Counted from the first letter of the stretch, positions 24,497 to 47,617 are shown. The stretch: DNA of 47,617 bases from Bilabrum cf. latius (GCA_965178125.1 OZ237742.1:1364001-1411617), one strand, 5' to 3'. Numbers and translations: made by a program. Notes: a model not told the origin generated them from the letters alone.

Positions 24497-24704
24497 GATT
24501 GCTGTGGTGCAGAAATTTAGCTTATAGACTCCGAGTCTAAATCGATCGGATGCCCCACCAACAAGTAGACCTGTTATCTGCGGACCAGGCAGCATTTGGC
24601 AAATTCCTAGACTTCAATGATGGATCTTCCCTGCAATGTCTGATAATTGTCAGATCCCTGTCCTTGGGTTGTTATTTGCTACTCACACATACATGCACCA
24701 TGGT

Positions 24705-24976
24705 CCATCCATCGCCCGCACACCCAATCTGCTTGCCCCGGCATGTACCATGACCCCATCCACCGCCCGCACACCCAATCTGCTTGCGCCAGCACATGTA
24801 CCATGTCCCCATCCACCGCCCGCACACCCGACCTGCTTGCGCCAGCACATGTACCATGACCCCATCCACCGCCCGCACACCCGACCTGCTTGCGCCAGCA
24901 CATGTACCATGACCCCATCCACCGCCCGCACACCCAACCTGCTTGCTCTAGCACATGTACCATGACCCCATCCACC
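24705..24976. repeat. 53-bp telomere-adjacent satellite, ~5 copies
   Basis: ccatcc unit starts at 24705, 24756, 24809, 24862, 24915 and 24968. The last unit is truncated and runs directly into TTAGGG. Confidence 0.92.
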
Positions 24977-25070
24977 GGTTAGGGTTAGGGTTAGGGTTAG
25001 GGTTAGGGTTAGGGTTAGGGTTAGGGTTAGGGTTAGGGTTAGGGTTAGGGTTAGGGTTAGGGTTAGGGTT
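24977..25070 (+). repeat. (TTAGGG)n array T1, ~15 units
   Basis: Perfect TTAGGG repeats. Confidence 0.99.
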
Positions 25071-26719: not shown

Positions 26720-27587
26720 GGGTTAGGGTAGGGTTAGGGTTAGGGTTAGGGTTAGGGTTAGGGTTAGGGTTAGGGTTAGGGTTAGGGTTAGGGTTAGGGT
26801 TAGGGTTAGGGTTAGGGTTAGGGTTAGGGTTAGGGTTAGGGTTAGGGTTAGGGTTAGGGTTAGGGTTAGGGTTAGGGTTAGGGTTAGGGTTAGGGTTAGG
26901 GTTAGGGTTAGGGTTAGGGTTAGGGTTAGGGTTAGGGTTAGGGTTAGGGTTAGGGTTAGGGTTAGGGTTAGGGTTAGGGTTAGGGTTAGGGTTAGGGTTA
27001 GGGTTAGGGTTAGGGTTAGGGTTAGGGTTAGGGTTAGGGTTAGGGTTAGGGTTAGGGTTAGGGTTAGGGTTAGGGTTAGGGTTAGGGTTAGGGTTAGGGT
27101 TAGGGTTAGGGTTAGGGTTAGGGTTAGGGTTAGGGTTAGGGTTAGGGTTAGGGTTAGGGTTAGGGTTAGGGTTAGGGTTAGGGTTAGGGTTAGGGTTAGG
27201 GTTAGGGTTAGGGTTAGGGTTAGGGTTAGGGTTAGGGTTAGGGTTAGGGTTAGGGTTAGGGTTAGGGTTAGGGTTAGGGTTAGGGTTAGGGTTAGGGTTA
27301 GGGTTAGGGTTAGGGTTAGGGTTAGGGTTAGGGTTAGGGTTAGGGTTAGGGTTAGGGTTAGGGTTAGGGTTAGGGTTAGGGTTAGGGTTAGGGTTAGGGT
27401 TAGGGTTAGGGTTAGGGTTAGGGTTAGGGTTAGGGTTAGGGTTAGGGTTAGGGTTAGGGTTAGGGTTAGGGTTAGGGTTAGGGTTAGGGTTAGGGTTAGG
27501 GTTAGGGTTAGGGTTAGGGTTAGGGTTAGGGTTAGGGTTAGGGTTAGGGTTAGGGTTAGGGTTAGGGTTAGGGTTAGGGTTAGGGTT
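26720..27587 (+). repeat. (TTAGGG)n array T2, ~144 units
   Basis: Perfect repeats after one TAGGG variant unit near the start. Confidence 0.99.
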
Positions 27588-29218
27588 ACAGTACCATCCT
27601 AGGCCAGGCCCGGGCGCCGCGAAAGTATCATGTTCCGCAAAAAGTATCATGTTCCGCATAGACGGTGTTGCCGCGCAGTGTCCAAGTGGTCGCAAGATCG
27701 CACTGAGGCAGATCTGGGCCAGTTGCAGAGATGCAAGCAGTCGACAAGAGGTGCAAGTGATTAGCAATGCATATTTGGTGTATGATTATGATTGTCTGCT
27801 TGGTTTGCAATGAATCTCGGCCTCGGTCTCCTCGGTGGTGCGGCCCGTGGGTGACGAGCACCCAGGGGGCTGCACGGGATGGACGCCCACCCGGCGAGTC
27901 TGGACCAAACCGCGTCGTGCAAATTGGGTTTGCCAAGGAGGTGTGCCCTGCTGTGTTTCGCCCGCGAGAATAGGGGGTTGTCTCCCCGTCGGGCAGGTGC
28001 TCCATCCAGCTCGCCCGTCCATGACTGAGACAGCACGGGCCGCGACAAGTGCGCGAGCCCGGGGATCAAGTCAGCGGCCGATGGCAGCGAGCCGGCATGA
28101 AGCGCGTGCACGAGGAGCTTGCGCTCCCCATGCACTGCCTGCCCCACCTCATTGCGGATCTGGGACATCAGGTTCATCGTGTTGCCACACACACCTCCAC
28201 ACTCGACGATCGGATCTACAGAGACACCTGTCCCGGGATGCTGCTCCTCGTCATTGGCCTGCTCCTTCTCGCCCCGGGGGCACGCGCTGCCTCGAAGCAC
28301 GCACCCGCGCTCCCGCCCGACTCAAGGACTGAGTGCTGGGAGGGTGCGCGGGCAGCCGCGTGAGAGGACGACGGGCGTGCCGCCGAAGGCCGAGTCCAGG
28401 AGCTGGGGACGGGACGCATCATTGGGACTGCCCTGAGGAGACCAAAGAATCAACCGCCATCCGTACGGATCCCTATACGGTTGGCCGGTCTGACTCTCTG
28501 CTCGCCCACTGCACGGATCTGCTCAGTTCCATGCAATGTTTGCCAAAAGCGGCGAGAGGGTCTCATCAGCACAGGTGGGTCCTAAAAGCTGCCTGCAATG
28601 CATAGGAAAAGAATAAAACGATTGAAAACAAATTAATAGCCCCTCAATGCAAGGCAACATACCCGAGTGCTGCCATGAAAACCGGACAACGCACAAGCAC
28701 GTCAGCAGACCAGCGATGATCCCATACAGATGCCAGAACCACACACAATTACAAAGCAAACAAACTGAATGAATACAATAGAATTAAAACACCTGGCGGT
28801 TGTTTTACTCGGGCTATGCTGTACCTAGCTGTTCTGTCTGCAAGCGCCATCGCGCGCCCCAATGAGGCGAGACCTAAGCAGAGCTACAGCAGCATGCCAC
28901 CTTGGACACACCGCGATATATGGCAGGAAATGGCAATTAACATTAATCCCAACAGGTTCCAGGACAGTTGAGCCTGTCTGTGGTGCTGAGAGGTGTGGTT
29001 GCGCTAGAATTCGCCAACGGTTGTGAACACTGGCAGCGGAACCAGTTAGCTAGGCGGCGCGGCGTCTTAGGCTGCACAATACTGTCAGACTTTGCAGTGA
29101 ATACCGTCAATCTCGCATCATAGTTTCAAACGATGAGTACTTTTGTTGATTGTGATAGTGGAAGTCAGTCCGAGTGCATTGGTTGGGCGAATATTTGAGA
29201 TTCCTCATCTTCGGAGTT
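27588..29218. mobile_element. Telomere-embedded cassette A, copy 2 (1631 bp)
   Basis: Same termini as copy 1; lacks the 18-bp duplication (agtcgacaagaggtgcaa) present in copy 1. Confidence 0.7.
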
Positions 29219-29689
29219 GGGTTAGGGTAGGGTTAGGGTTAGGGTTAGGGTTAGGGTTAGGGTTAGGGTTAGGGTTAGGGTTAGGGTTAGGGTTAGGGTT
29301 AGGGTTAGGGTTAGGGTTAGGGTTAGGGTTAGGGTTAGGGTTAGGGTTAGGGTTAGGGTTAGGGTTAGGGTTAGGGTTAGGGTTAGGGTTAGGGTTAGGG
29401 TTAGGGTTAGGGTTAGGGTTAGGGTTAGGGTTAGGGTTAGGGTTAGGGTTAGGGTTAGGGTTAGGGTTAGGGTTAGGGTTAGGGTTAGGGTTAGGGTTAG
29501 GGTTAGGGTTAGGGTTAGGGTTAGGGTTAGGGTTAGGGTTAGGGTTAGGGTTAGGGTTAGGGTTAGGGTTAGGGTTAGGGTTAGGGTTAGGGTTAGGGTT
29601 AGGGTTAGGGTTAGGGTTAGGGTTAGGGTTAGGGTTAGGGTTAGGGTTAGGGTTAGGGTTAGGGTTAGGGTTAGGGTTAGGGTTAGGGT
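29219..29689 (+). repeat. (TTAGGG)n array T3, ~78 units
   Basis: Perfect repeats, with the same TAGGG variant near the start as T2. Confidence 0.99.
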
Positions 29690-29799
29690 ATCTGGGGGTC
29701 ATGTTAGGATCGGGGCACGCCCTTTTTTGGACCAAAAATAAAAACGCCGCACATTATATATATTTAGATAGCCCTTGATCAGGAGAGTTGTTTTATGGT

Positions 29800-31170
29800 T
29801 AGTTGGCGGCACTCATTTCCAATATTGAGCGAGATATGGGGAGGTTTCGGGTCACCAGTTGAGCGGATGATTTTGGCAGGTCGTTTTAGGCATGTTCAAA
29901 GACGAATGGCCGTTTGATTGTCTATGTGGTTATCAGAAATGGCCAACAATATGGGATGCATAGCTTGTGTGCCCTGGTTGGGCATTCGCGGCGCCAGTTC
30001 CGCAGGATTGGTGAAAACTCCTTCTAGGAGCGGTTTCTCCTAGTGGTCCATCCGGAGTCAATATTGAGTGGTCCCATCGGATGCGTCTCGATGAGTAGAT
30101 CACTTTGATGGTTGGTTGGCGGCACTCATTTCCAATATTGAGCGAGATATGCCCAGGTTGGCGGTTGGCACCCAGCTGTGCCAGGGCTACTTGTAGGTTG
30201 GCGGTTGGCGAAAATTCAAATTTCGATTCACAAATCGAGACTTATATCATTCGATAGCTCGAGATCATAGAAGTCCTACACGGTAATTTGGGCGTGTCAT
30301 CATGCGATGCGGCGCCGGTTCCGCAGGATTGGTGAAAACCTTCTAGGAGCGGTTTCGCCTAGTGGTCCATCCGGAGTCAATATTGAGTGGTCGCATCGGA
30401 TGCGTCTCGATGAGTAGATCACTTTGATGGTTGGTTGGCGGCACTCATTTCCAATATTGAGCGAGATATGCCCAGGTTGGCGGTCGGCACCCAGCTGTAC
30501 TTGTAGGTTGGCGGTTGGCGAAAATTCAAATTTCGATTCACAAATCGAGACTTATATCATTCGATAGCCCTGGATCATAGAAGTCCTACACGGTAATTTG
30601 GGCGTGTCATCATGCGATGCGGCGCCGGTTCCGCAGGATTGGTGAAAACCTTCTAGGAGCGGTTTCTCCTAGTGGTCCATCCGGAGTCAATATTGAGTGG
30701 TCCCATCGGATGCGTCTCGATGAGTAGATCACTTTGATGGTTGGTTGGCGGCACTCATTTCCAATATTGAGCGAGATATGCCCAGGTTGGCGGTTGGCAC
30801 CCAGCTGTGCCAGGGCTACTTGTAGGTTGGCGGTTGGCGAAAATTCAAATTTCGATTCACAAATCGAGACTTATATCATTCGATAGCCCTGGATCATAGA
30901 AGTCCTACACGGTAATTTGGGCGTGTCATCATGCGATGCGGCGCCGGTTCCGCAGGATTGGTGAAAACCTTCTAGGAGCGGTTTCGCCTAGTGGTCCATC
31001 CGGAGTCAATATTGAGTGGTCGCATCGGATGCGTCTCGATGAGTAGATCACTTTGATGGTTGGTTGGCGGCACTCATTTCCAAAATTGAGCGAGATATGC
31101 CCAGGTTGGCGGTTGGCACCCAGCCGTACTTGTAGGTTGGCGGTTGGCGAAAACTCAAAGTTCAATTCAC
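29800..31170. repeat. ~310-319-bp tandem satellite, ~4.3 copies, with alternating unit types
   Basis: The anchor ggcactcatttcc occurs at 29808, 30121, 30440, 30750 and 31069 (spacings 313, 319, 310, 319). Confidence 0.9.
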
Positions 31171-31223
31171 ATATCAAGGCACAAATAGCTCACAAGGAAG
31201 GAGATGCCGATATCAAGGCATTT

Positions 31224-32945
31224 TCAATGCTCTGCTCCGTCCGCTGCTGCGGCCGCTTGGCGGGCATCCAGGACTCCTGTGATGTAGGCCATGCGCTGCT
31301 CCAGGCGTTCCAGCAGCCAGTCTGCATTCTCGCCTTCACGGACATCGCACATCCGGACCTGGTTTCCAGCTCTGCGCTTCTGCTTCCCGATCCTCTTGGA
31401 GTTGTCCTTGTACTTTTGAACCTCCTAGACGGTGATCGGGGCTGCACCTGCTGCTTGTGGTGCTGGCGGGACTGGTGCTTGACCTGCAGCTCCTGCAGCA
31501 GCTTGTGCTGGCGGGGCTGGTGCTTGACCCGCAGCTCCTGCTGCAGCGTGCGGTGCTGGCGGGACTGGTGCTTGACCCGCGGCTCCTGCAGCAGCTTGTG
31601 CTGGTGGGACTGGCCCTTGACCTGCAGCTCCTGCAGCAGCTTGTGCTGGTGGGACTGGTGCTTGACCTGCAGCTCCTGCAGCAGCTTGTTGGGCTGGCGG
31701 GACTGGTGCTTGACCTGCAGCTCCTGCAGCAGCTTGTTGGGCTGGCGGGGCTGGTGCTTGACCCGCAGCTCCTGCTGCAGCGTGCGGTGCTGGCGGGACT
31801 GGTGCTTGACCTGCAGCTCCTGCAGCAGCGTGTGGTGCTGGTGGTGCTGGAGCCGGGGCTGGGGCCTGGGAGTTCCCGCGACGAGCTCTTAGGCGACCAT
31901 TTGACCGCCCTTTGCGGCTCCGCATACCTGATGCATGCATCTCCGCCTCCTCCTCTGCCTTCTCGTCGTCGAAATCAGAGCCCTCATCGTCGCTCTCGGA
32001 GTCGTCGTCACTGGGAGCCGCCTCACCATCGTGCTCATCCTCGCTGTCGCTCCCACTTTCATCATGCTGGTCGTAGGACGAGGCACTTCCCGCGCCCCTG
32101 CCTGCACCCGATGCAGCGCCCGTGCGTCCAGGAGCCTTCCCCTTGTGACGAGCCGCAGAGCGTTTGGACTTGGCTGCTGCTGCTGCCGCGCCCGCCTCGT
32201 CGTCCTCATCGGATTCGCCCTCCTCAAAGACATGCCTGAGCAGAGCATTCCGAAATCCTCGGCTGGCCTTGGAGCCCGAGATGCGCCGCGACTTGCCAGG
32301 TGCACCCCTCGCGGCTCGCCCCCGTGCCGGGCCGATCGAGCCCTTGGCCGAACTGGACCCGCCGCGGGCCTTATGACGTCCAACTGGCCCTGGTTGGGGC
32401 ACTGCCAGAATCCTTGGCATCATGTCGTCCTTGGTGCTGAACCAGGACGTCTGCATGTCCTCTGACCCGAAGACATCCTGCAAGACCGCCTGCATAGCGT
32501 TGTCTTCCGTACGACTGCCGTGTCGCCGTGCCATCCTCACAAGCCACCCAGGAATATCATGCACCTTCCTCTTGTTTAGGGCAGCGCGACCATTCACCAA
32601 CCATGTGATCTTGCCTACAGTCCAGTCATCGTCACGAGCCTTCCTGACCGCCTCCAAGAAGTTTTCTACGCCGTCCTCCGCTCCCCCGCGACTGGCGAAC
32701 GCGTAGGCAACTGCATCGGTTGTCGTGTTGTCTGCAACTTCCACGTCGACCTCCATGTCCTCCAGAACGGCCTGAACTTGCTCGCGGACTCGGCCTCGCA
32801 CATCCTCGGCGGGCGCAAGCACGCAGCCTGTCCCCTTCAGGAAGCCATGCAGCGTAACCACAAGGACCTTGGCGGCGTTGGCCCTCGGTGTCTTGCCGAT
32901 GATGTCCACGATGGTCTGAGAGATGTCGTTGTGCTTGGGTGGCAT
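31224..32945 (-). CDS. Hypothetical protein of cassette B (~573 aa): globular N-terminus, basic and acidic tracts, Ala/Pro/Gly/Gln repeats
   Basis: Long ORF 31425..33125, likely start MPPKHNDISQ at 32945. Reading through the TAG at 31427-31425 adds a helical tail (EVQKYKDNSKR...WLLERLEQRMAYITGVLDARQAAAAADGAEH) ending TGA. The repeat APVPPAQAAAGAAGQ occurs ~8 times. Confidence 0.7.
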
Positions 32946-34260
32946 GGCCTGCGCGAAGAAGAAGTGCGGCAGATAGCGCAAGATAGGTTGTGGCTGCGGT
33001 GGGAGGGCGGCACCACATGCAGCTGCCGTGCGCAGACACAGCACTGGACCAACCATTCGATATGGCACCAAGGGGTCCATTCCAATCAGGAAACATGCCA
33101 CTATTCGATGCAACATAGGTTGCAACCGGGCATCTCAAGTTGCAACCGATCGTGTCACACAAGCAAACCAGATTTGCAGTAGCGTGCACTTTCCAGCCAC
33201 CACCAATTGCAGTTGGGAGGGATGCCCTCATTTCAGCTCGGACAAAGGCCACAGTGAGACAACCAGGCATTCGTGTGTACTTAAATAGTAATATTGCATA
33301 CATCTGACAAGGTCGGAAGTCACAAAGCTCGAGCATTGCAACGATCATACGGTCATGTCAGCCGGCGCACCTCGCTCCCAGACAAATCACCAAATTGCGC
33401 CCCGCAGGAAAAGAAAATCGCCGCGGCGCGCGTTGCAAACAAAACGTGAGACAACAATGCAACTATAGACGCGCGGCTGCATGGCAGTTTGCGCGCAGGA
33501 TAGTGCGCGCACAGGGCGAATCCATTCCAGCTGTCCGGCGCACCCAGCACGTTGGGCCAATTTTTGCCATGTTCCCGCGGACAATTTTCAATCGCAGGCT
33601 CCCAAAGTCTATTTTAGACATCATTGAATACAACTGTTCGCTATAATTCTCACGTGAGTTCTTTTTTGTGGGTTTGAAAAATGAGCGTCTCGCGTCCGAC
33701 AGCGGGCCGGCTGCGTGGCCGTCCGGAGCCGTTTTGCGGGGGAGGGGTGTGATGAGTGCACCGTGCGCCGTGCCCCGGTTGGATGGCATGCCTAACTGAA
33801 GCTCATTGGAGTACTATTACCCCTGTGCCATGGTTCCCCGGCCCTGGACCAGGCCTCGTGCACCCAAATTCCGGCCGCCCGGCACCAGCCCTCCAGACGG
33901 GGGTGCGCGCGGCCCCGGGAGGCGACGGGGGCGGGTGCCCGACCATGCAATGTGTTCTTGTGGCCCTTGGGGGCTAAGGCAGCCGCCCCTTGTTCCCTGA
34001 TGATGTGTGTCTGGCTTGCTGCACCGGTGTGGAGGTGCTCGCCGGGTGGGCCCCGCGCTGCGGGGCCTTCCCAGGCTCCTATCCTACAGTGTGCTGCAGG
34101 GTGCACTGCAGGGTGCTGTTAGTGTCTGCTGCATGTATTGTCGCATGTCTGCTACGTTGCTAGTGCCGCGGGAGCGTTCTCGACCCGTCCCGCCAAGCTC
34201 CCCCACTGCCCCCCACTGCCGCCCAACGCACCATCCGCATGTATGGAGTGCTGCGTTCTG

Positions 34261-34717
34261 GTAGGGTTAGGGTTAGGGTTAGGGTTAGGGTTAGGGTTAG
34301 GGTTAGGGTTAGGGTTAGGGTTAGGGTTAGGGTTAGGGTTAGGGTTAGGGTTAGGGTTAGGGTTAGGGTTAGGGTTAGGGTTAGGGTTAGGGTTAGGGTT
34401 AGGGTTAGGGTTAGGGTTAGGGTTAGGGTTAGGGTTAGGGTTAGGGTTAGGGTTAGGGTTAGGGTTAGGGTTAGGGTTAGGGTTAGGGTTAGGGTTAGGG
34501 TTAGGGTTAGGGTTAGGGTTAGGGTTAGGATTAGGGTTAGGGTTAGGGTTAGGGTTAGGGTTAGGGTTAGGGTTAGGGTTAGGGTTAGGGTTAGGGTTAG
34601 GGTTAGGGTTAGGGTTAGGGTTAGGGTTAGGGTTAGGGTTAGGGTTAGGGTTAGGGTTAGGGTTAGGGTTAGGGTTAGGGTTAGGGTTAGGGTTAGGGTT
34701 AGGGTTAGGGTTAGGGT
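34261..34717 (+). repeat. (TTAGGG)n array T4, ~76 units
   Basis: Perfect except one TTAGGA at ~34525-34530. Confidence 0.99.
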
Positions 34718-35454
34718 ATCTATTATAAAGTCAGGGACAGGGTCGGGGAAAAAATATTTTCATCTTCACTTTTTGTCAAAAATATGCAACATAGGATCTC
34801 GGCAACCACAGGAGATATGAAGACCGTTGAAACTGCATTGGGACGGCCTAGGTGCACAACATTGGCCAAATGTTCCCCAGGTTCCGTTTCTGCCGCGCGG
34901 CGCCAATATGGGCCAATGAAGATTTGCATGCTGAAAATATGCAACATAGGATCTCGGCAACCACAGGAGATATGAAGACCGTTGAAACTGCATTGGGACG
35001 GCCTAGGTGCACAACATTGGCCAAATGTTCTCCAGGTTCCGTTTCTGCCGCGCGGCACCAATATGGGCCAATGAAGATTTGCATGCTGAAAATATGCAAC
35101 ATAGGATCTCGGCAACCACAGGAGATATGAAGACCGTTGAAACTGCATTGGGACGGCCTAGGTCCATACCATTGGCCAAATGTTCCCCAGGTTCCGTTTC
35201 TGCCGCGCGGCGCCAATATGGGCCAATGAAGATTTGCATGCTGAAAATATGCAACATAGGATCTCGGCAACCACAGGAGATATGAAGACCGTTGAAACTG
35301 CATTGGGACGGCCTAGGTGCACAACATTGGCCAAATGTTCCCCAGGTTCCGTTTCTGCCGCGCGGCGCCAATATGGGCCAATGAAGATTTGCATGCTGAA
35401 AATATGCAACATAGGATCTCGGCAACCACAGGAGATATGAAGACCGTTGAAACT
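34718..35454. repeat. Cassette C: short unique head plus 155-bp satellite, ~4.4 copies
   Basis: The anchor aatatgcaacatagg occurs at 34781, 34936, 35091, 35246 and 35401. The last unit is truncated into TTAGGG. Confidence 0.93.
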
Positions 35455-36072
35455 GGGTTAGGGTTAGGGTTAGGGTTAGGGTTAGGGTTAGGGTTAGGGT
35501 TAGGGTTAGGGTTAGGGTTAGGGTTAGGGTTAGGGTTAGGGTTAGGGTTAGGGTTAGGGTTAGGGTTAGGGTTAGGGTTAGGGTTAGGGTTAGGGTTAGG
35601 GTTAGGGTTAGGGTTAGGGTTAGGGTTAGGGTTAGGGTTAGGGTTAGGGTTAGGGTTAGGGTTAGGGTTAGGGTTAGGGTTAGGGTTAGGGTTAGGGTTA
35701 GGGTTAGGGTTAGGGTTAGGGTTAGGGTTAGGGTTAGGGTTAGGGTTAGGGTTAGGGTTAGGGTTAGGGTTAGGGTTAGGGTTAGGGTTAGGGTTAGGGT
35801 TAGGGTTAGGGTTAGGGTTAGGGTTAGGGTTAGGGTTAGGGTTAGGGTTAGGGTTAGGGTTAGGGTTAGGGTTAGGGTTAGGGTTAGGGTTAGGGTTAGG
35901 GTTAGGGTTAGGGTTAGGGTTAGGGTTAGGGTTAGGGTTAGGGTTAGGGTTAGGGTTAGGGTTAGGGTTAGGGTTAGGGTTAGGGTTAGGGTTAGGGTTA
36001 GGGTTAGGGGTAGGGGTTAGGGTTAGGGTTAGGGTTAGGGTTAGGGTTAGGGTTAGGGTTAGGGTTAGGGTT
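35455..36072 (+). repeat. (TTAGGG)n array T5, ~103 units
   Basis: Perfect repeats with a ttaggggtaggggttaggg variant near 36004-36022. Confidence 0.99.
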
Positions 36073-37926
36073 ACAGTACCATCCTAGGCCAGGCCCGGGC
36101 GCCGCGAAAGTATCATGTTCCGCAAAATGTATCATGTTCCGCAAAGACGGTGTTGCCGCGCAGTGTCCAAGTGGTCGCAAGATCGCACTGAGGCAGATCT
36201 GGGCCAGTTGCAGATATGCAAGCAGTCGACAAGAGGTGCAAGTGATTAGCAATGCATATTTGGTGTATGATTATGCTTGTCTGCTTGGTTTGCAATGAAT
36301 CTCGGCCTCGGTCTCCTCGGTGGTGCTGCCCGTGGGTGACGAGCACCCAGGGGGCTGCACGGGATGGACGCCCACCCGGCGAGTCTGGACCAAACCGCGT
36401 CGTGCAAATTGGGTTTGCCAAGGAGGTGTGCCCTGCTGTGTTTCGCCCGCGAGAATAGGGGGTTGTCTCCCCGTCGGGCAGGTGCTCCATCCAGCTCGCC
36501 CGTCCGTGACTGAGACAGCACGGGCCGCGACAAGTGCGCGAGCCCGGGGATCAAGTCAGCGGCCGATGGCAGCGAGCCGGCATGAAGCGCGTGCACGAGA
36601 AGCTTGCGCTCCCCATGCACTGCCTGCCCCACCTCATTGCGGATCTGGGACATCAGGTTCATCGTGTTGCCACACACACCTCCACACTCGACGATCGGAT
36701 CTACAGAGACACCTGTCCCGGGATGCTGCTCCTCGTCATTGGCCTGCTCCTTCTCGCCCCGGGGGCACGCGCTGCCTCGAAGCACGCACCCGCGCTCCCG
36801 CCCGACTCAAGGACTGAGTGCTGGGAGGGTGCGCGGGCAGCCGCGTGAGAGGATGACGGGCGTGCCGCCGAAGGCCGAGTCCAGGAGCTGGGGACGGGAC
36901 GCATCATTGGGACTGCCCTGAAGAGACCAAAGAATCAACCGCCATCCGTACGGATCCCTATACGGTTGGCCGGTCTGACTCTCTGCTCGCCCACCGCACA
37001 GATCTGCTCAGTTCCATGCAATGTTTGCCAGAAGCGGCGAGAGGGTCTCATCAGCACAGGTGGGTCCTAAAGGCTGCCTGCAATGCATAGAAAAAGAATA
37101 TAACGATTGAAACTAATTAATAGCCCCTCGATGCATGGCAACATACCCGAGTGCTGCCATGAAAACCGGACAACGCACAAGCACGTTAGCAGACCAGCGA
37201 TGATCCCATACAGATGCCAGAACCTAACAGAAACACCAACAATCAATTTGAATGAATACAATAGAATCAAAATACCTGGCGGTTGTTGTACTCGGGCTAT
37301 GCGGTACCTAGCTGTTCTGTCTGCAAACGCCATGGCGCGCCCCAATGAGGCGAGACCAAAAGCAGACCCACAGCAGCATGTCACCTTGAACACACAACGA
37401 TGTATGGCAGTAAATGGTAATTAACATGAATCCCAACAGGCCTCAGTACAGTTGAGCCGGTATGTGGCGCTGAGAGGTGTGGTTGCGCCAGAATCCGCAA
37501 ACGGTCGTGAACAGCGGAACCAGCATGCGCGGCGCCGAGGACGTCCAGCAGGGCAAGCCTGTAGCAGGGTGTGCACCGGTTCACGGTACCGATGCTTGGA
37601 TGTTTGTGGGCTAGGAATCTGTTTTGTAATACACATGATAGGGTTAGCCCTAACCCTTCAGAATCGGATGCATGGTTCATTTACTTCCATGAGAAGGGCT
37701 GACGTCCTGCATGCACTACATTAGCCCAAATACAACACACGCACATGTCGTCTTGAAACAGTGTAATTTGCACCTCTTTATATTACAGTGGATATAACTC
37801 ATGGCGAGAGAGGCCTGTCTGTCTGCAGTGCTGCAATGCAGCTCTTCACTGCTGCACATGCAGCTCGAGGTTCTGCAAGTTATCTGTTCTGCATAGAAAA
37901 TCACAGAACATGACACCTCACTGGCC

Positions 37927-40900
37927 TCATGTCCATTTCTCATCAAACCCCCAGCCTTCTTGCTCAATTGCTGGGATGTGTACCCACCGTGGAGCGGTGC
38001 CAAGAAGAAGGATCTCGATTTCGCCACGTGCCCGTGAAATATCTCGCTGGCCCATACCACGCAATCCAGCGCCGGGCACTGATGGCGCCATGTTCTGGTC
38101 ACCACGAATTCCTCTAGGTCGTGACAGTGCTGAAGTCGGCGGCTGCGTGATGGCGCTGGAGGCTGCTCCCAGCGGCGGCTGCAACTCGGCAAGGCCGTCA
38201 CTACCAGCCTTGTCGGTAGGCATCTGCAGCAATCGACCGATTGGATCATCATCGCTGCCAGCCCCACTGGATGCTGATGCCGAGGCAGGCCTCAATGGTT
38301 CCGATGCCCTGCTGCCGATCGCAGTTCGGTTGAATGCGTTGGCCTCCGTTCGTTCTGCGGGTCTCGAGCTCGCATGCTCGCCGGATTGCCGCATGTGCCT
38401 TGATCGCTTCTATTGCCCTTCTTCCTCATCGCTCTCATGGCCGGGCCAAATATGTCCCAACGAATCTAGGCTATGCTCAAGAGCAGAAGTAGCGGTGGAT
38501 GCCTGTGACAGGATGCTGTCGCCATCGTCAAGAGGACGAGCACGTGTGTACATCCGAAGAACCTAGCTGCAGTGTTGCGATTGAGGTATGTGATACGCAC
38601 GCCAAAGCTCGTGCCTCTGGTCGGCACTCACGCCTGCTTCTCCTGCTTCTGCACGTGCTCGGGCCACCATGGATCGGACATCTCCCACAGCTTTCAAGCT
38701 TTGAGCTAGTGACCTGCGTACCAGCCCCTTGCCTGCTGCCTTGTAGTACGGGGCTTCTGATAGTGCAGGCACTACTGATGGACTACAGGGCAGGTTAATG
38801 CAGAGACCAGCGCCGTAGTAGCCTACATCGATGACACGACGCAGTGACCCATCCTACCTGTTCAGCGCCCCTCTGAAGACTTGAGGACAATCAAAGCCTG
38901 GGTTCATCCACTTGAAATGATCTAGCACGACAGACTCCACGTGCTGGGCAATGGTAACGGCAGGCTGGGCGGTTCTTGGTGGTGGCGAGACGTCGAGCAC
39001 TGTCTAAAGTCCAGATCGTGCAATCGGCGGCTGGCCTCCCCTTGGTCGCTTCGTTCCAGGCAGAGGGGGCCGCTGCAACCGATCGGGCAGCAATACTGCA
39101 GACCCAATCACACACGCAGGTAAAAGCCACACTGATACCATACGACGAAACTGCTCGTCTGCGAGGGATGGCTGTCCGTTCTGCCTGGTGCCTACGACAG
39201 CACGAAGAATTGAAGCGACGTACGAGGTCCGGACAGATGACTCGGCAGCAAGCTTGCGTTGCATGGTCCAGGATAACGTTGTTATCAACGCATAGCCTAG
39301 CTTGGAGGCCCTAGCAGATGTCGTGGTCGCCAAGTCACCCCTGAGATTCCCAGCGTTCTTAGAGCCGCGCCACATTGCGCCTGCATCTGGCCTGGGACTG
39401 AAGGCAATCTTGGATATGCACATCTGCAAGCCAACTAGTATTGCACTCCTTGAGCACCTGAGCCGAGATAGGAGCAGCCCGTACAGTGCTACAGCTAGGC
39501 TGCCCCTTGCTAGCATTCCTTTCCGTGTGCCACTGCGAAGGTGGAGCTTTGCCAGGTGCATTTGCGCAAGGTAAAGCTTCCGTAGCTGCTGCTCCATGAC
39601 TACAGCGTGGGACATGTCTGTAGACTTGGCAAAGTGCAACAATAGCCTGGACCGCTCAGGCAGTCGAGACAAAATGTCAGCCTGCACGTCAGCCCGTACC
39701 ATAGCACGAAAGCCGGTGATTCCGTTGTTCACACCGCTGATGCCCAACTGGAAGTGCTCGTCACCTTGCGTTGATACGAGTCCAGAAAGACCATACCTCT
39801 CGGAGATCCGAGAGATCTGCCATGTCATGCCCAAGCCTTCTGCCAACGCACACAGGCTCCAAGACGTTACCATAACCTCACAGACGGCAAGCACAGTCCA
39901 CGAGTTCAAGAACGTACCGTTGCACCCCCCAGCCCTGACTGACTACACCGCATTTCCGATTTGATCAATGATGGCGGATGCAACCGCCATTACATTAGAC
40001 TGCTCAGGCATACTGCTAGCAGATTGCAAACAGTCACGGACGCTGGACCACTCCAGTGTCGAAGGCCCTAAGTTTCGAAGAACTGGCCTAGTAGCGGGAA
40101 GCCACGTTACGGCAATTTGCTCTGCAACAACCTGAGACCATGCATCTGTCCGTAGAGCCACGCAGCCTTCCATACAGCATCTGCTCATCGATGCAGCTAG
40201 CGCCCACATCGCCGATCGCTGATACGTGGGAATCCTGTCTGCACCACAGACAGCTGCTACGAGCAGTCTTTCGATTCTGCAAAGTGCCCGACGGAGTGTA
40301 TACCTGAGCATTTCCAAGTGATTCATGATGGATGTCTTCTTCACGACCTCCACGAAGCATTGCGAGAATGGAGCCACTGACAAATGCTCGATAGTGTCGG
40401 CGCGATGTTCACTCCGTAACTGTCCGTACTGCAGTTCAGCTGGTAGCACTACGGAGGCCAGCATCAGACTCATGGTTGACGCGGGTACATCGAACTCGCC
40501 CCTGGTCGATCCAAGGATTCCTGCAGTTAGCCTTGCATAGCTTTGAGTGAATGCCGTTTGCAGCCCAAGGTATATCCGCCGGCGGGTTGGCAGTGCATCC
40601 AGAGCTGCCTAGGCTCGAATCATGCTTGCAGTTCTCGAACTCAAAGTCGATGGAGCATGTGCACCCGATTCAGCGAAGTGGCGAACCTTAGAGAGAACTC
40701 GTCGGCGAAACTGGTCATATGCAGAGTCGTGCGCCCCTGGACTAGGCTGAAATGCTCGGAATGCTCCAGGCTGGTACAAATGCAGCTGAGATGACAGCAT
40801 GCAGCCAAGTGACATAAATGAAGGCATGCCGTAGTCGTTGCCAGTGTCATTCTCGGCTAAAACACGTCGGTGCACGGAAAGCACGTCACCCCAGGATAGC

Positions 40901-43900
40901 GTAGCTGGAAGCATTCCTTGGAAGGTTCCGGCGTACTCTCCAACGGACGCCAGCGCCGCATATGGACGAATTCGCTCTTGCATCACGGCATACCGTGCGT
41001 GTTCGAGCCGTGTTCCGTGTATGACTCCTCGCAGCAACTGATCCCGACAGCTATGCATGTACTGAACTGTTGCTGGGTTCGGTACAGCAACTGACACTGA
41101 GCGTTCACCACACACCTCAAAGCCTACGCCAAAACTGCAGTACATGGCCATATCCGCATCCTGTTGCGGCCACAGCTGTCCGTACGGATGAATTATGGCT
41201 GCGAGATCTCTCATACCTCGGCGTTGATGACGTCCAGTCCAAGCAGGTGCTCGCGCCGCGCCGCGGTACAGCTCTTCCCGAGCACTGCGTGTCAGTGTTT
41301 TCCTGCTCACCTTCCTGTTTGTAGCGCCTGACGCCGATCGCTTGCCATCTCCTGTTGGACCAAACCATTCACCTCTGCGGCCTCTGGCAAACTCCTCATC
41401 GCTCTCATCCATTGCGATCTCCCGAGCACGTTCTTCTTCTGCCTGCTGGGCAGCCAAGTCTTCATGAGCTTTGCGAAGCTGTCCCTGTGCTGCCTGTTGC
41501 AAGAGAGACATAGGATTGCATGCTTTGCAGCCCACTCGCTAGGCGTAGAACACGGAGCACCTGGCTATCTGTCTCATCAGCAGTATCATGAGGAAGCAGT
41601 TGTAGTGTGATACTAAGTGCAGATGATCAAGTAAAGAGTCGTGACTCAAAGACCACTCGTAGGAGCTGCTGTGCTATGCTTCATCATCCTCCACGCCACG
41701 TTGCTTAGCGAAGTCGTCGTCCTCATCCACGTCCACGTCGGTGTCGTCTGAATCGCTCTGCGCAGCAGCACCACCGCTTATTCCCACGCCTTCATTCTGC
41801 TGAGCCTCGTCAGAATCAGAGTCAGAGTCACTCAACTAGTCAACGGCTGGGTAGCCAAGCCACCGTACCCAATGAAATGCGCACGAAAGCAACCGGGATG
41901 GGCTTCTGTGCAGGGTGTGAGAGCCAGGCCAGAATCTACTTGTCTGTGGACCAGGTCCACTCCCAGCGTGTGCGAGCGACGAATGGTATCCACCGGCTTG
42001 GCCTCCACCACGTTGGACACGTACCACTAGCTCTGGACCTAGCCAGTCGAGCCTGCTGGCAGCAGCCGTGAGCCCGCAGCCGAAGACGTACAGCACACAG
42101 CTTCGGATTACATCCACATGGGAGCCCTGGGTCCAGAAGCCTTCATGCATACTCATTTCTACAACACCCTCAGTATCAAGCGTTTGCTGCAAGGACTGAG
42201 ACGGAGGTTCGAACGAGTCTATCAGGTCACGGCAAAGATCAAGCAATCCACTAGGTACAAGAATAGATACCGTAGCAGCACCAACATCGAAAAGTTGAAC
42301 GTGGATGTCAGCAGCGAGTCCGCGCAGTATACGAAGCGTTGGCAATTTCGACGATTGATCGTTTGCGTTTTCTGCTTGCGTGCTGACAGCCCTACTCCAC
42401 AAGGTTCCAGAATGCGGCACCACTGAAGCCCACCCTTCCCTTGCAGCCTTGTCGACATCACGATGGAACTATCGGGTGCACTCCTACTCAATTAGTTTGC
42501 TATACTTGGTAACATCAGACAAGGCTCCGGCAGCCAACACCCGGATGCTTGAGCCACCAAGTCCATTCGGACACTTCTGCTGCAGATCGGTCACCTTGGA
42601 TCGTAAGCTATCAATCTGCTCTTGGTCGCAACGACGCTCAGCCCACAGCATCGCAGTTTGCTAGTCTTTGAAAACGTCATCCCCGTCATCAAGGAATGCT
42701 GTCCATGATATGCGCATTGATCCGCCGGCAGGCGGCCGCTGTGCGTGCGGGGCGCGAACTACCACGCCAGTTGAGGGTGATTGAGACAAGCTGGTATACG
42801 ACGGAAGCAGCGAATCTGAGTCATGTACACCTAGAACGCCATCTGTGATCCAGTCCAGCAGTGCATGGTCCGATCCATCAAGCCCCAGTGGGCTTGCCAA
42901 CGTGTGAGGCAGAAAGTGGTTCGAAGTCTCGTCTGCACTGGATCCATTGAGGTCTGCGACAGCTCCAAGAACAGTGAACCCATCTAAATCAAATGCAGAA
43001 TCGCTGTGACAAGACAGCGGTACGTTTCTGGAACCTGGTGCAGACTTGAACGCTCTATATATCGCAGGCTGGTCCGGAATTGTGCTGTCCATTGATCTTC
43101 GCGGAGAGGCCGAGCTTGACAGGCCTCGGCTTGCACTCGGAGTGACGGGCTAGCTGGATGTTCGACTCTCTTTGACAGCGACTTTCTTCCTTGCTGCGGC
43201 ACGAGATCCTTGCCTTCGGACGGCGGGCAATGGAGCGAACCCAAGGCACATGCCTGCCAAGAAGTCCAGGGGGGATGACAGGTGCTGTTGAGGTCCAGAC
43301 TCCGTTTCTGGTTGGGACATCTGATCGAGCGAGCTGCCAGTGGCCTAGCTGGCACCATGAGAACTACTGCTGGGGCTGCTTGCGGCGCCTGACGACTGTC
43401 GACGGCGGCTTGGCGAGCTGCCAGTGGCCTAGCTGGCACCACGAGAACTACTGCTGGGGCTGCTTGCGGCGCCTGACGACTGTCGACGGCGGCTTGGCGA
43501 GCTGCCAGTGGCCTAGCTGGCACCACGAGAACTACTGCTGTGGCTGCTTGCGGCGCCTGACGACTGTCGACGGCGGCTTGGCGAGCTGCCAGTGGCCTAG
43601 CTGGCACCACGAGAACTACTGCTGGGGCTGCTTGCGGCGCCTGACGACTGTCGACGGCGGCTTGGCGAGCTGCCAGTGGCCTAGCTGGCACCACGAGAAC
43701 TACTGCTGGGGCTGCTTGCGGCGCCTGACGACTGTCGACGGCGGCTTGGCGAGCTGCCAGTGGCCTAGCTGGCACCACGAGAACTACTGCTGTGGCTGCT
43801 TGCGGCGCCTGACGACTGTCGACGGCGGCTTGGCGAGCTGCCAGTGGCCTAGCTGGCACCACGAGAACTACTGCTGGGGCTGCTTGCGCCTCGTGACGAT

Positions 43901-44605
43901 CGTGCACGAGTAGCCGTTTCAGGAAGATCGAATCCCCGCATCTCACTGTGTGCTCCTGACATCTCTGCTCGGGCAGCGAGAGCAGCTTGGGCAGGCAGAT
44001 ATCCAGTTGGCGCGTACTAGCAGCAATCAACCAGCGATACGTATGTATGCAGATCTGACTCCTTGATCAAGTCGTCAATTAATTGTTTGTGAAATATTTC
44101 TGCATCAGCGCTGGGTGTATCGTAGACCGTGAGAAGATCGGCCAGCATGCCATTTTCGATGACATCGCTTGAGACTCCAAGTTCTCGAAGGCACTCCTAA
44201 ATTTCTTCGACTTCGATGCCATCCATCTGCGATATAATAAACTGAAGTTCAATATACTGCGGTTGCTGCTGAGATGTACTCCTATTATCCCAACTGTAGC
44301 TCTGCCTTACTTCAGCTGGCGGATTCGGCTGCTGGGGATCGAAAGTGCGGATCATCTCTAATTTTTCTTCGGATATCTGCGTAACAATGCAACATAAGTA
44401 TGTATTGAGCTGTCTGCGGCGGATAGCAAATCAATACTGCCCATATACTCCACATAGAACTCACTGGAACGTGCTACCAAAACAGAGCTCGACGATTCAT
44501 TGCTCGCTGCAATCTTTTGAGTACTTTGTGCATAGATTGCATCTAGCGTGTATCATCTAAGACTTTACATGCATCGTCAATGGAACACAAGGTTTCGTCA
44601 GACAT
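37927..44605 (-). CDS. Giant hypothetical protein (~2,170 aa) visible only with UAG read as sense; predicted exons 44605-44465, 44376-44311, 44226-37927
   Basis: ORFs 42661..43092, 41836..42423, 40609..41535, 39943..40473, 39004..39909, 38563..38772 and 37927..38394 all share one frame. Scanning the gaps found only TAG (~22 in 6.3 kb) and no TAA/TGA until 37929-37927. The 5' exons are joined by GTGAG..CAG and GTAAG..CAG introns. No known domain recognised; further 3' exons are not excluded. Confidence 0.8.
43329..43887. repeat. 84-bp coding tandem repeat, ~6.7 copies
   Basis: gcgagctgccagtgg starts at 43329, 43413, 43497, 43581, 43665, 43749 and 43833. It encodes GAS*ATGSSPSRRRQSSGAASS(P/H)SSSSR in the giant ORF frame, with one TAG per unit. 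Confidence 0.95.
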
Positions 44606-44816
44606 CTTTAGGCCGGTTCTGGCGCAAGCAATACTCAACGGAATATTGTGCGCGTCCCCCTCGTGGGGGGCGAGTGCCACCAGTGGGGGGTGCGTGCGGC
44701 GCCGCGCTCGACGGCGGAACACAGTATCTCAAACTGCAAGTGGTCTCGAACATCAAGATTTTTTTGTTTGCTTGCTGGCATTTTGTTTCTCTTCTGCCAG
44801 GCAGTGTGAAAAATAT

Positions 44817-45764
44817 ATGTCAGACCATGCATCACCGTGGGCATTGCTTGGATTGAAGCCTGTAGACTTCGCAACGGAAAGTCTCGCAATCCGCCGAGGC
44901 TTGTGTATCGCAGCTTGCGGCATATCGGTTGAAACCGTGCGGTGCATCTTTTAGGATGGTGCCTATGTATCTGCGCGATAGCGTACATCACTTCATAGTG
45001 TAATGCAGCGTATTTGTGCGACAGATGACGGCAAAGTGCTGCGTGTCGACCCAAGCTTCTTGCTTGCGGAAACAGGCCAAAGACACTTGCGTTATGCTAT
45101 CAATAGTATTAAAGAGAAGTCTGACGACGCAATCAGACGTGCCATGATGAAACTGGCTCCACAGAATGGGTTGGCGTTGCATGGAACCGGCAAGCACGCA
45201 CCAAGCTCGTCGAAGCACGTCGAAAAGATGGCATGTGCTACTGCAGCTGAAGACGACACTGCAAATACTCAAAAGGGCTCATGCCTGAGATCATCTGCCT
45301 CTGGGTGTGCAAGATCGGAATCGAAAGGCAATGTTGGCTCAGGCTCCAGCCAGTAGCACCGGCGTGCACGGCGGGGCTAGTCCAAGGTCCACGGCCAGAA
45401 GATGCCGACTCAAGCCCAAGTATACTCGTGGCAAGAGGCAGTACTGCATCTGCGAACGCTCTGTGACGCATGCGAGCAGAAGGCTCACCTGACCGGAGCG
45501 GAAGCTCGCAGCTTGGTCAGATTGGCTAGCAGCAGCATCGAACCAGCTCTCGGGCGTCTAATGCAACTGGCGCGCGCAGACAAGTCTAAGAGGTCTGTGC
45601 CACTTAAGCGGACTGCTACAGCGAGAACGAGCCTATCGCGTACACCCGTCGAGTTGCCCAAAAGGAGGAGAGGGGAGAAAAGGAAATTGCTCGCTGGGGA
45701 TGCGACGCCATCGAAAAGGTGTAGGAGCATCCCTGGTGCAGTTTCGTTTCTTTCAGGGAAGTAA
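44817..45764 (+). CDS. Hypothetical basic protein of cassette D (315 aa), divergent from the giant ORF
   Basis: ORFs 44580..44954, 45003..45356 and 45402..45764 share one frame, linked by four TAGs. Likely start MSDHASPW; ends TAA. NLS-like PKRRRGEKRK near the C-terminus. Confidence 0.65.
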
Positions 45765-45859
45765 ATACTAGGTCAATACAGGTGGGCACTCGCCATCTCA
45801 CTTCTATATCCACCCAACACTCCCCCCTCCTAACTTCCAGCCAAATTGGCACCACGGCG

Positions 45860-46095
45860 CCATCCATCGCCCGCACAAACAACCTCCTTGCCCCGGCACA
45901 GCCACCATGGCCCCCATCCATCGCCCGCACACCCACCCTCCTTGCCCCGGCACAGCCACCATGGCCCCCATCCATCGCCCGCACACCCAACCTCCTTGCC
46001 CCGGCACAGCCACCATGGCCCCCATCCATCGCCCGCACACCCACCCTCCTTGCCCCGGCACAGCCACCATGGCCCCCATCCATCGCCCGAACACC
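45860..46095. repeat. 54-bp telomere-adjacent satellite, ~4.3 copies, related to the 53-bp satellite at 24705
   Basis: ccatccatcgcccg starts at 45860, 45914, 45968, 46022 and 46076. Confidence 0.92.
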
Positions 46096-47300
46096 TTAGG
46101 TTAGGGTTAGGGTTAGGGTTAGGGTTAGGGTTAGGGTTAGGGTTAGGGTTAGGGTTAGGGTTAGGGTTAGGGTTAGGGTTAGGGTTAGGGTTAGGGTTAG
46201 GGTTAGGGTTAGGGTTAGGGTTAGGGTTAGGGTTAGGGTTAGGGTTAGGGTTAGGGTTAGGGTTAGGGTTAGGGTTAGGGTTAGGGTTAGGGTTAGGGTT
46301 AGGGTTAGGGTTAGGGTTAGGGTTAGGGTTAGGGTTAGGGTTAGGGTTAGGGTTAGGGTTAGGGTTAGGGTTAGGGTTAGGGTTAGGGTTAGGGTTAGGG
46401 TTAGGGTTAGGGTTAGGGTTAGGGTTAGGGTTAGGGTTAGGGTTAGGGTTAGGGTTAGGGTTAGGGTTAGGGTTAGGGTTAGGGTTAGGGTTAGGGTTAG
46501 GGTTAGGGTTAGGGTTAGGGTTAGGGTTAGGGTTAGGGTTAGGGTTAGGGTTAGGGTTAGGGTTAGGGTTAGGGTTAGGGTTAGGGTTAGGGTTAGGGTT
46601 AGGGTTAGGGTTAGGGTTAGGGTTAGGGTTAGGGTTAGGGTTAGGGTTAGGGTTAGGGTTAGGGTTAGGGTTAGGGTTAGGGTTAGGGTTAGGGTTAGGG
46701 TTAGGGTTAGGGTTAGGGTTAGGGTTAGGGTTAGGGTTAGGGTTAGGGTTAGGGTTAGGGTTAGGGTTAGGGTTAGGGTTAGGGTTAGGGTTAGGGTTAG
46801 GGTTAGGGTTAGGGTTAGGGTTAGGGTTAGGGTTAGGGTTAGGGTTAGGGTTAGGGTTAGGGTTAGGGTTAGGGTTAGGGTTAGGGTTAGGGTTAGGGTT
46901 AGGGTTAGGGTTAGGGTTAGGGTTAGGGTTAGGGTTAGGGTTAGGGTTAGGGTTAGGGTTAGGGTTAGGGTTAGGGTTAGGGTTAGGGTTAGGGTTAGGG
47001 TTAGGGTTAGGGTTAGGGTTAGGGTTAGGGTTAGGGTTAGGGTTAGGGTTAGGGTTAGGGTTAGGGTTAGGGTTAGGGTTAGGGTTAGGGTTAGGGTTAG
47101 GGTTAGGGTTAGGGTTAGGGTTAGGGTTAGGGTTAGGGTTAGGGTTAGGGTTAGGGTTAGGGTTAGGGTTAGGGTTAGGGTTAGGGTTAGGGTTAGGGTT
47201 AGGGTTAGGGTTAGGGTTAGGGTTAGGGTTAGGGTTAGGGTTAGGGTTAGGGTTAGGGTTAGGGTTAGGGTTAGGGTTAGGGTTAGGGTTAGGTTAGGGT
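46096..47300 (+). repeat. (TTAGGG)n array T6, ~200 units; probable true terminal telomere
   Basis: Longest array, G-rich strand running 5'->3' toward the window end, followed only by bacterial sequence. Confidence 0.97.
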
Positions 47301-47617
47301 TCGGCACCGTGCAGGTGGACGAGGCGTTGCTTGGGGGTGAGGTTCGCCCGGCCCTGCTCAAGCAGGCCTATGTCCGGATTCATGCGAACAAGCGCCAGGG
47401 GACGTCCAAGACCAAGGCCCGCGGTGAGGTCGAGGGTTCGACCCGCAAGCTTTACAAGCAGAAGGGCACGGGCAACGCGCGGCGTGGCTCGATTCGGGCC
47501 AACATCCTTCGCGGCGGTGGTCATGCCAAGGCTAAGCGTCCCAAGAGCTGGCGTCAGGGGATGCCGGTGAAGATGCGTCGCCTGGCCAATCGGAATGCGA
47601 TTCTTGCCAAGGCGGTG
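47300..47617 (+). CDS. rplD: Internal fragment of bacterial 50S ribosomal protein L4 (probable chimeric/contaminant sequence)
   Basis: The frame from 47300 reads FGTVQVDEALLGGEVRPALLKQAYVRIHANKRQGTSKTKARGEVEGSTRKLYKQKGTGNARRGSIRANILRGGG..., containing the L4 signature RQGT..TK.R.EV.G..RK...QKGTG.AR.G. It has no start codon, so it is absent from the ORF track. Confidence 0.92.

Follow-up and report, generated by a model that had tools for sequence, protein, structure and literature searches.

We analysed a 47,617-nucleotide stretch of Bilabrum cf. latius (GCA_965178125.1 OZ237742.1:1364001-1411617; hereafter the window), which bears a long minus-strand gene between arrays of telomere repeats. 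The initial annotation of the window had noticed seven scattered minus-strand open reading frames (ORFs) and proposed that they belong to one hidden gene, invisible under the standard code and supporting TAG as a sense codon. When the seven ORFs are placed by coordinate modulo 3, they fall into a common frame without TAA or TGA, and they merge into a single 2142-codon ORF, closed by TGA, once TAG is counted as sense. We refer to the encoded protein as P0001. The gene and its immediate surroundings comprise the following features:

37927-44355, minus strand: main ORF (P0001), 2142 codons plus TGA, with 22 in-frame TAG read as Gln
37927-38394, 38563-38772, 39004-39909, 39943-40473, 40609-41535, 41836-42423 and 42661-43092, minus strand: the ORFs of at least 60 amino acids (aa) obtained with translation table 11 in the P0001 frame
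43329-43899, minus strand: 84-bp tandem repeat, 6.8 copies at 98% identity, coding for a 28-aa Ser/Arg-rich repeat with one TAG and SPSR in each copy
44227-44310, minus strand: putative intron 2, 84 nt, GTAAGG...CGCAG
44377-44464, minus strand: putative intron 1, 88 nt, GTGAGT...CGCAG
44465-44605, minus strand: putative 5' exon 1, 47 codons from an ATG at 44605, with 2 TAG
44817-45764, plus strand: divergent second ORF, 315 codons from an ATG at 44817, with 4 TAG, a TAA stop and KRRR near the C-terminus

The P0001 frame contains 22 TAG, no TAA and no internal TGA, whereas each of the remaining five frames of 37927-44355 holds 3-11 TAA, 30-67 TGA and 20-27 TAG. Relative to the non-coding frames, the coding frame shows no shortage of TAG; TAA and TGA are excluded from it. 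In 1000 simulations under a first-order Markov model of the same span, the longest frame free of TAA and TGA measured 243 codons in the median and 472 at most; the 2142 of P0001 agree with the proposal that the gene strongly supports TAG as sense. Seven of the 22 TAG are one codon multiplied by the 84-bp tandem repeat, leaving 16 independent TAG. The codon positions also differ in composition (34% G at position 1, 26-27% at positions 2 and 3), and the GC content at third codon positions (GC3) is 0.54, compared with 0.83-0.85 for the adjacent host genes.

What relatives does this protein have? A HMMER search of 1.84 billion representatives with P0001 aa 747-1946 returned 10 proteins at E ≤ 0.001, each 43-364 aa long and 35-88% identical. 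The matches are encoded on contigs of ENA, Logan and JGI, and the 19 cluster members listed for them are all without a name. Three of the fragments, together with one cluster member, end exactly at TAG positions 939, 1249 and 1834 of P0001. On this sequence evidence, the database relatives of P0001 are pieces of homologues that were cut by standard-code gene calling. An intact homologue lies on an 8118-nt contig (L001), which was returned by a metagenome scan with the single protein P0007 and traced from the most distant HMMER match. Its ORF (1719-7379; protein P0021) runs for 1886 codons with 24 TAG, no TAA and no internal TGA, and the other frames of that interval hold 1-11 TAA and 26-65 TGA. 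By BLASTP, P0021 is 29% identical to P0001 over 852 aa (E 5e-77) and 26% identical over 453 aa (E 2e-24). For the N-terminal part, a word-based search with P0001 aa 1-900 among shorter proteins gave a single fragment at 83% identity, low-complexity words having probably swamped the search. A scan of IMG/VR gave eight pattern matches, none of them confirmed as a relative of P0001.

Because the frame is open over 2142 codons, because the homologue is intact over 1886 codons, and because TAA and TGA are confined to the other frames, we regard the gene as real. It is, by these comparisons, a genuine and conserved protein-coding gene that represents a lineage-restricted orphan family. Contigs of three public sequencing runs differ from the window by 18 single-nucleotide polymorphisms (SNPs) inside the ORF, 7 of them synonymous, 11 non-synonymous and none stop-creating. 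As an observation on the wider interval, runs X1, X2 and X5 have a 7-base deletion at 37762 and 22 substitutions within 37815-45283, 15 of which are common to at least three runs; the assembled copy is therefore not the sole allele, copy or strain in public data.

The second ORF is arranged divergently from the big gene. Its stop-to-stop frame (44409-45761) spans 451 codons and includes an earlier ATG at 44580. Contig L001 carries a counterpart, P0022 (241-1251, minus strand; 336 aa), in the same position and orientation and with a KRRR/KRRK motif near the C-terminus, as in the window ORF; a G/T-rich 49-bp tandem repeat follows P0022 in the contig. The similarity between the two proteins is weak, with residues 25-97 aligning with 24-96, a BLASTP E of 0.11, and a score that is reached by 14 of 500 shuffles. 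The pair of a big gene and a divergent small ORF seems to be conserved across both loci, even though the small proteins can barely be aligned.

The use of TAG as a sense codon is not restricted to the big gene. The left 23 kb of the window carry GC-rich host genes (span 1280-23082) for Mito_carr, Cupin_8, Mcl1/Ctf4, an EHD-type dynamin and a CCT-motif protein, and in-frame TAG occur three times each in the Mito_carr, Cupin_8 and Mcl1/Ctf4 genes and six times in the CCT-motif gene. The ORFs of P0001 and P0021 terminate in TGA, and those of P0022 and P0023 terminate in TAA. Judged by these genes, TAG is a sense codon throughout the organism, and TAA and TGA terminate. As for the amino acid, GAR[TAG]YRG of the mitochondrial carrier aligns with GARQFNG of solved ADP/ATP carriers; this is the one of its three TAG sites that faces Q, and the Q recurs among solved carriers. 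Similarly, the TAG in HV[TAG]IFDVG of P0021 stands opposite the Q of HVQLFDVG. In the comparison of P0001 with P0021 as a whole, Q is found opposite 4 of the 46 TAG positions; where local identity is at least 0.33, two of five TAG face Q (HVQ motif, position 848) and the remaining three stand opposite H, A and S. From these few sites, UAG is probably best read as Gln, and the code would then follow the pattern of NCBI table 15 (UAG Gln, UAA and UGA stops). A scan of the window for transfer RNAs found none. TAA was also considered as a second Gln codon and rejected, as P0001 has no TAA compared with 37 CAA, 67 CAG and 22 TAG.

Which organism uses this code? The best full-length relatives of the EHD protein that carry a name belong to Cafeteria roenbergensis (53% identity, 96% of the query covered) and Bicosoecida sp. 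(59% identity, 66% covered). Two higher-scoring matches bear arthropod names and cover just 65% and 48% of the query, and one relative without a name is 86% identical. Since the best full-length named relatives are those of C. roenbergensis and Bicosoecida sp., we tentatively place the host as a GC-rich protist related to the bicosoecid stramenopiles. Nuclear codes that reassign UAG alone are described in the consulted portion of PMC5304391. The code of the window resembles those cases and NCBI table 15 in that UAG is sense and UAA is still a stop, with UAG here most likely Gln. It differs in its apparently bicosoecid-related host, a group for which our literature search, in the parts of the sources that were accessible, found no report of nuclear UAG reassignment.

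Where does the protein begin? The earlier figures of about 24 TAG and about 2,170 aa correspond to a spliced model, in which the upstream piece contributes 2 further TAG to the 22 of the main ORF. The two introns proposed there (44464-44377 and 44310-44227) do have canonical ends, with phases compatible with a start at ATG 44605, and a host mitochondrial-carrier exon in the window is likewise preceded by ...tttcgcag; the introns themselves remain candidates. Candidate intron 2 is in frame and without stops, so the frame is open whether it is spliced or unspliced, and an ATG follows directly, at 44226. Exon 1 shows no similarity to the N-terminus of P0021 (the observed score is reached by 478 of 500 shuffles), and residue 1 of P0021 aligns with residue 48 of P0001, just past ATG 44226 (score reached by 10-13 of 500 shuffles). 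The candidate 5' introns find no support in the homologue, and three starts of P0001 are possible: 44605 with two introns, 44355 unspliced, and 44226.

P0001 opens with a small acidic N-terminal domain, followed by seven 28-aa Ser/Arg repeats. Next comes a domain of about 400 aa that is conserved and bears the motif HVQxFDVGxAxVSxxVPSG; behind it lie an acidic tract (about aa 841-895), a conserved stretch of about 850 aa and a poorly conserved C-terminal tail. The Ser/Arg-rich repeat and the acidic tract had both been described in the initial annotation. The conserved part amounts to about 1,300 residues in all and is mostly helical by prediction. Neither Pfam nor NCBIfam nor PHROGs returned a significant match for P0001, P0021, P0022, P0023 or a 633-aa ORF elsewhere in the telomeric part (see below); weak rows below the cut-off were RICTOR_N (E 0.074) and Ribosomal_L44 (E 0.024). 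A sequence-profile search of the PDB with the alignment of P0001 and P0021 gave no matches at E ≤ 1. Inspection by eye had found no reverse transcriptase (RT), Walker A or similar motif, and the Pfam and pattern scans agree: P0001 contains no Walker A, DEAD/H or CCHC pattern, and the only matches to [YFLM]xDD are LIDD at 92 and FLDD at 554, neither of which is conserved in P0021. A cluster of Cys and His residues, which had been singled out as well, fared differently. As a metal site it was rejected, since its residues are unconserved between P0001 and its relatives: only C933 is invariant against P0021, and a close homologue fragment has R at C920 of P0001.

Structure prediction yielded mainly helices. 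The AlphaFold2 model of aa 747-1946 (14 rows) has a mean predicted local distance difference test (pLDDT) score of 41.3, too poor for a fold search. The model of aa 430-850 (3 rows) has a mean of 40.8, and only about residues 709-799 reach 67-84. With the latter model, Foldseek found no matches in the PDB at E ≤ 0.001, and VIA-align reached a best Z of 4.8 among 48,161 chains, on one long helix; nothing rose above background in either comparison, and no fold can be assigned to P0001 from them. We offer, as a doubtful suggestion, that P0001 may lack enzymatic activity and may act, probably in the nucleus, as a scaffold or in association with chromatin, with phosphorylation regulating its Ser/Arg region.

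The initial annotation had placed the gene inside the telomere, and the surrounding repeats bear this out: the gene sits in a block that is bounded by TTAGGG arrays, and several truncated, telomere-capped versions exist. The telomeric part of the window is made up as follows:

24977-25071, 26720-27588, 29219-29689, 34262-34717, 35455-36073 and 46099-47301: six TTAGGG arrays, with the G-rich strand on the plus strand in all six
25072-26719: short block 1, consisting of module M (95% like 36074-37513) and 189 bp of its own, then joined to an array at gagttggg/TTAGGGTAGGG
27589-29218: short block 2, 100% identical to 25072-26719 where aligned, with the same irregular junction to the next array
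31227-33134, minus strand: 636-codon open frame, 633 aa from its first start codon (TTG), with 1 TAG
35455-36073, plus strand: interstitial (TTAGGG)n array of about 103 units, flanking the gene block on its centromere side
36074-46095: low-GC gene block, roughly 8-10 kb, between the interstitial and terminal TTAGGG arrays
36074-37513: module M, 1.44 kb, after telomere arrays
45850-46095: 54-bp tandem repeat beside the terminal array, about 80% like a 53-bp repeat (24691-24977) before the innermost array
46099-47301, plus strand: terminal (TTAGGG)n array, about 200 units
47302-47617, plus strand: foreign stretch beyond the terminal array, matching a partial gene for ribosomal protein L4 of a bacterium (Pfam Ribosomal_L4, E 1.1e-31)

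The arrays range from 90 to 1200 bp in length. All three copies of module M follow an array at an identical junction (GGGTTA/CAGTACCATCC, with the slash marking the joint), and the 3' junction (GGGTTA/CAGTACCATCCTAGG) has no poly(A) or A-rich end in any of the three. The module M copies of the short blocks match that of the gene block at 95-96% identity, and the similarity stops at 37513. At their other ends, both short blocks share the irregular first repeats of the junction gagttggg/TTAGGGTAGGG, and on the centromere side the block-to-array junctions show 2-5 nt of microhomology to the repeat (gttggg/TTAGGG, ctgg/TAGGG and cctta/GGTTAG). Comparisons by tblastx and blastn of the inner subtelomere (23100-24700) with the blocks, and of the L001 flanks with the window, gave no matches. 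Further truncated versions are found in run X5, whose contigs join gene positions 38797 and 41983 to telomere repeats, the end at 38797 consisting of GGGTTA repeats. Depth in this run is 2394-2974 for pieces of 37692-38797 compared with 494 for 38768-41983, a 5-6x difference. The short blocks and the truncated run X5 copies are without the gene's 5' end and promoter side.

The tail at 47302-47617 is 99% identical over 103 aa to a metagenome-assembled genome of Mucisphaera sp. (Phycisphaerae, planctomycete). On this match, position 47302 is a chimeric assembly join that lies outside the locus, and the partner is probably a co-cultured planctomycete. Because the chimeric L4 join comes directly after the array, the evidence suggests that the 1.2-kb terminal array is a true chromosome end.

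Pfam was run on 78 frames in all: P0001; 15 frames from across the window, 6 of them entirely within its telomeric part, which starts at 24.6 kb; and 62 others, 61 of them between 24.6 and 46.1 kb. None of the 78 matched a reverse transcriptase, integrase, helicase, nuclease or Gag family. Four Pfam matches fall in telomeric frames, three of them low-complexity and the fourth the Ribosomal_L4 piece; matches elsewhere are to host-gene families. Viral hallmark families (capsid, packaging, replication) were likewise not found by Pfam or PHROGs in the scanned frames, although divergent viral genes could escape such searches.

Taken with the anatomy of the arrays, these results lead us to think it somewhat more probable than its negation that the orphan UAG=Gln gene is the main cargo of a block copied between chromosome ends by recombination. 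Gene, code and layout can be read off the locus directly, and it is from the anatomy that we infer the recombination mechanism. The block would be duplicated between and within chromosome ends as DNA. A telomeric 3' end would invade an interstitial TTAGGG array and copy the sequence distal to it, either through break-induced replication or by unequal exchange; the block would lose sequence from the gene's 5' end inwards as the terminus erodes or breaks; and telomerase would heal the ends at short G-rich microhomologies. Copying at the DNA level is suggested because the blocks without the gene's 5' end share breakpoints and junction irregularities. Invasion would account for the constant array-to-module junction, since strand invasion into an interstitial array would yield such a junction, and healing by telomerase is suggested because the block-to-array junctions show microhomology. 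We favor the role of cargo because the 78 frames lack an RT, because a divergent second gene and possible introns are present, and because copying appears to proceed as DNA. The initial annotation had called the gene a candidate for the machinery or cargo of a new telomeric element; the cargo half of this idea stands, and the machinery half finds no support in the 78 frames of the window, which hold no copying or integrating family.

Yeast Y' elements and fungal TLH loci are gene-bearing subtelomeric blocks of several kb, with interstitial telomere tracts between them, that are amplified by recombination and carry one dominant helicase ORF. They are the closest arrangement to that of the window, sharing with it the repeated blocks, the interstitial telomere tracts and the single dominant long ORF. 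In the window, it is the identical duplicates and their identical junction irregularities that point to recombination. The differences lie in the genes: the ORFs of Y' and TLH are helicases, whereas P0001 has no Walker A, DEAD/H or Pfam family, and here the ORF points to the centromere and a second, divergent ORF is present.

Several points weigh against recombination of a host cargo gene. Contig L001 carries no telomere repeat, so linkage to telomeres is seen for the window copy and not for the distant homologue. With 7 synonymous and 11 non-synonymous changes, the SNPs of the ORF indicate only weak constraint. The GC3 of P0001, far from that of its neighbors, sets it apart from an ordinary host gene in its evolution and leaves room for a foreign or selfish origin. 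ORFs that constantly point to the centromere, together with 5' truncations, fit a telomere-targeted retroelement equally well. The read comparison covered 37600-45850, and the interstitial arrays rest on this assembly, which is chimeric at its very end (47302). Finally, the role proposed for P0001 is based on composition and on low-confidence models (pLDDT 41).

Of the alternatives, a non-autonomous telomere-targeted retroelement, HeT-A-like or the cargo portion of a Terminon-like unit, survives best, though we consider it unlikely. In such an element, transcripts running out of the gene through module M into the proximal array would finish in repeats complementary to the telomere and pair with a G-overhang, an RT provided in trans would reverse-transcribe them, and P0001 would be Gag-like or serve in targeting. 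The consulted portion of PMC5537684 describes HeT-A, TART and TAHRE of Drosophila and further telomere-specific non-long-terminal-repeat elements, 6-12 kb long and with genes of their own, which form terminal arrays in one orientation with the 3' end to the centromere and include 5'-truncated copies; shared orientation and truncation pattern are, as that portion has it, features of telomeric retroelements. The window has several of these traits. P0001 and the 633-aa ORF (31227-33134) are both on the minus strand and point to the centromere, with the G-rich strand on plus in all six arrays; a constant 3' module comes directly after the arrays; 5' truncation is variable, as in the run X5 ends at 38797 and 41983; and the foreign-like composition (GC3 0.54) would fit as well. 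The truncated copies are capped with repeats, but erosion and healing explain truncation equally well. Other traits are missing: the 78 frames of the window hold no RT, P0001 no Gag-type CCHC knuckles, and the junction no poly(A) or A-rich 3' end. The block also contains an opposite-strand divergent gene and candidate introns. Furthermore, telomerase repeats lie between the blocks here, and truncated copies that share breakpoints and junction errors have lost the 5' promoter and cannot transcribe themselves, so they would have been copied as DNA.

A similar comparison applies to bdelloid rotifers. As the accessible parts of PMC5537684 and PMC8557442 describe them, Athena elements, which are endonuclease-deficient Penelope-like elements, and the Terminons form terminal units with 3' telomere repeats and are often 5'-truncated; Terminons carry extra ORFs of unknown function in one orientation and are defined by an Athena-type RT. 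Each block in the window likewise follows a TTAGGG array, but the arrays are long (90-1200 bp) rather than short stretches, and no Athena-type RT lies within this window.

A bolder reading, which we hold to be improbable, is that of a new telomere-borne selfish element without a reverse transcriptase, in which P0001 and the small basic protein would promote the copying of their own block onto telomeres. They might do so, for example, by steering strand invasion at interstitial TTAGGG arrays, and the pair would have persisted across a UAG=Gln stramenopile clade. The change of code itself appears to be unpublished for this group, within the portions of the literature that were accessible.

The foreign-like composition could also point outside the cell. 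P0001 could be a remnant or domesticated gene of foreign DNA integrated at the telomere, for example from a large DNA virus adapted to UAG=Gln. Its GC3 falls well short of the host-gene values, and it is an orphan protein without cellular relatives beyond the TAG-cut fragments. In addition, telomere-integrating viruses flanked by telomere repeats are described in the consulted portion of PMC5537684, and a herpes-like element is reported from a stramenopile genome in that of 10.1101/2023.06.15.545109. Nonetheless, no hallmark family occurs in any scanned frame, none of the eight pattern matches in IMG/VR could be confirmed, and the block has just two genes. The homologue at 29% identity, with the same arrangement of neighboring ORFs, suggests long vertical residence. 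On balance, we regard a viral source as quite improbable.

It is still less probable that P0001 is an ordinary single-copy host gene near a chromosome end, with arrays and duplicated blocks that arose when long telomeric reads were misassembled. A chimeric join is demonstrable at 47302 (the planctomycete L4 gene), and the array junctions lie outside the read comparison (37600-45850). However, independent contigs of run X5 join 38797 and 41983 to telomere repeats, and the 3' part is 5-6x deeper in that run. P0001 does not share the codon usage of the host genes, and fragments at 56-88% identity, along with a 35% homologue in the database, point to several lineages or paralogues. That the frame is untranslated, either a dead relic or open by chance or composition, can practically be dismissed: the 7 synonymous to 11 non-synonymous SNPs are mildly below the neutral expectation, but the frame runs open for 2142 codons where no simulated one is longer than 472, its 29% identical homologue is intact over 1886 codons, and the 18 SNPs in the ORF create no stop.

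What does the locus mean? Standard-code annotation would split the gene into at least seven pieces and miss it, and all 10 of its database relatives are such fragments. The gene illustrates concretely how much an overlooked UAG reassignment can hide. Together with its L001 homologue, the gene provides strong statistical evidence for a reassignment of UAG alone in a lineage that is apparently related to bicosoecids, where no prior report came to light in the accessible sources. The chromosome end, in which telomerase repeats are interleaved with gene-bearing blocks, stands between telomeres that are maintained by telomerase and those that are built by transposons or recombination. With this interleaved structure, the organism could be used to study the repair of chromosome ends and the spread of subtelomeric gene families.

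Other frames and repeats of the telomeric part deserve mention. The 633-aa ORF belongs to a telomere-flanked block of 4.6 kb (29690-34261), which also has 319-bp tandem repeats (29988-31175). The ORF contains an Ala/Pro/Gln-rich tract encoded by 45/48-bp repeats, an acidic Ser/Asp tract and a basic tail; searches gave it no family and no relatives of similar length. A scan of Rfam returned no family. In module M, an open frame of 186 codons is kept in all three copies (36249-36806 on the minus strand, 25265-25822 and 27764-28321); its GC3 is about 0.70, it ends in TAA and matches no family, and we list it as a candidate coding frame. A 155-bp satellite (34779-35455; 4.4 copies at 98% identity) lies alone between two telomere arrays. 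On the centromere side, an open frame of 353 codons (23555-24613, minus strand; 347 aa from the first ATG), with a GC3 of 0.58, no TAG and no family, lies distal to the last of the GC-rich host genes and proximal to the innermost array with its 53-bp repeat. Given its low GC3, the low-GC subtelomeric domain begins proximal to the first telomere array.

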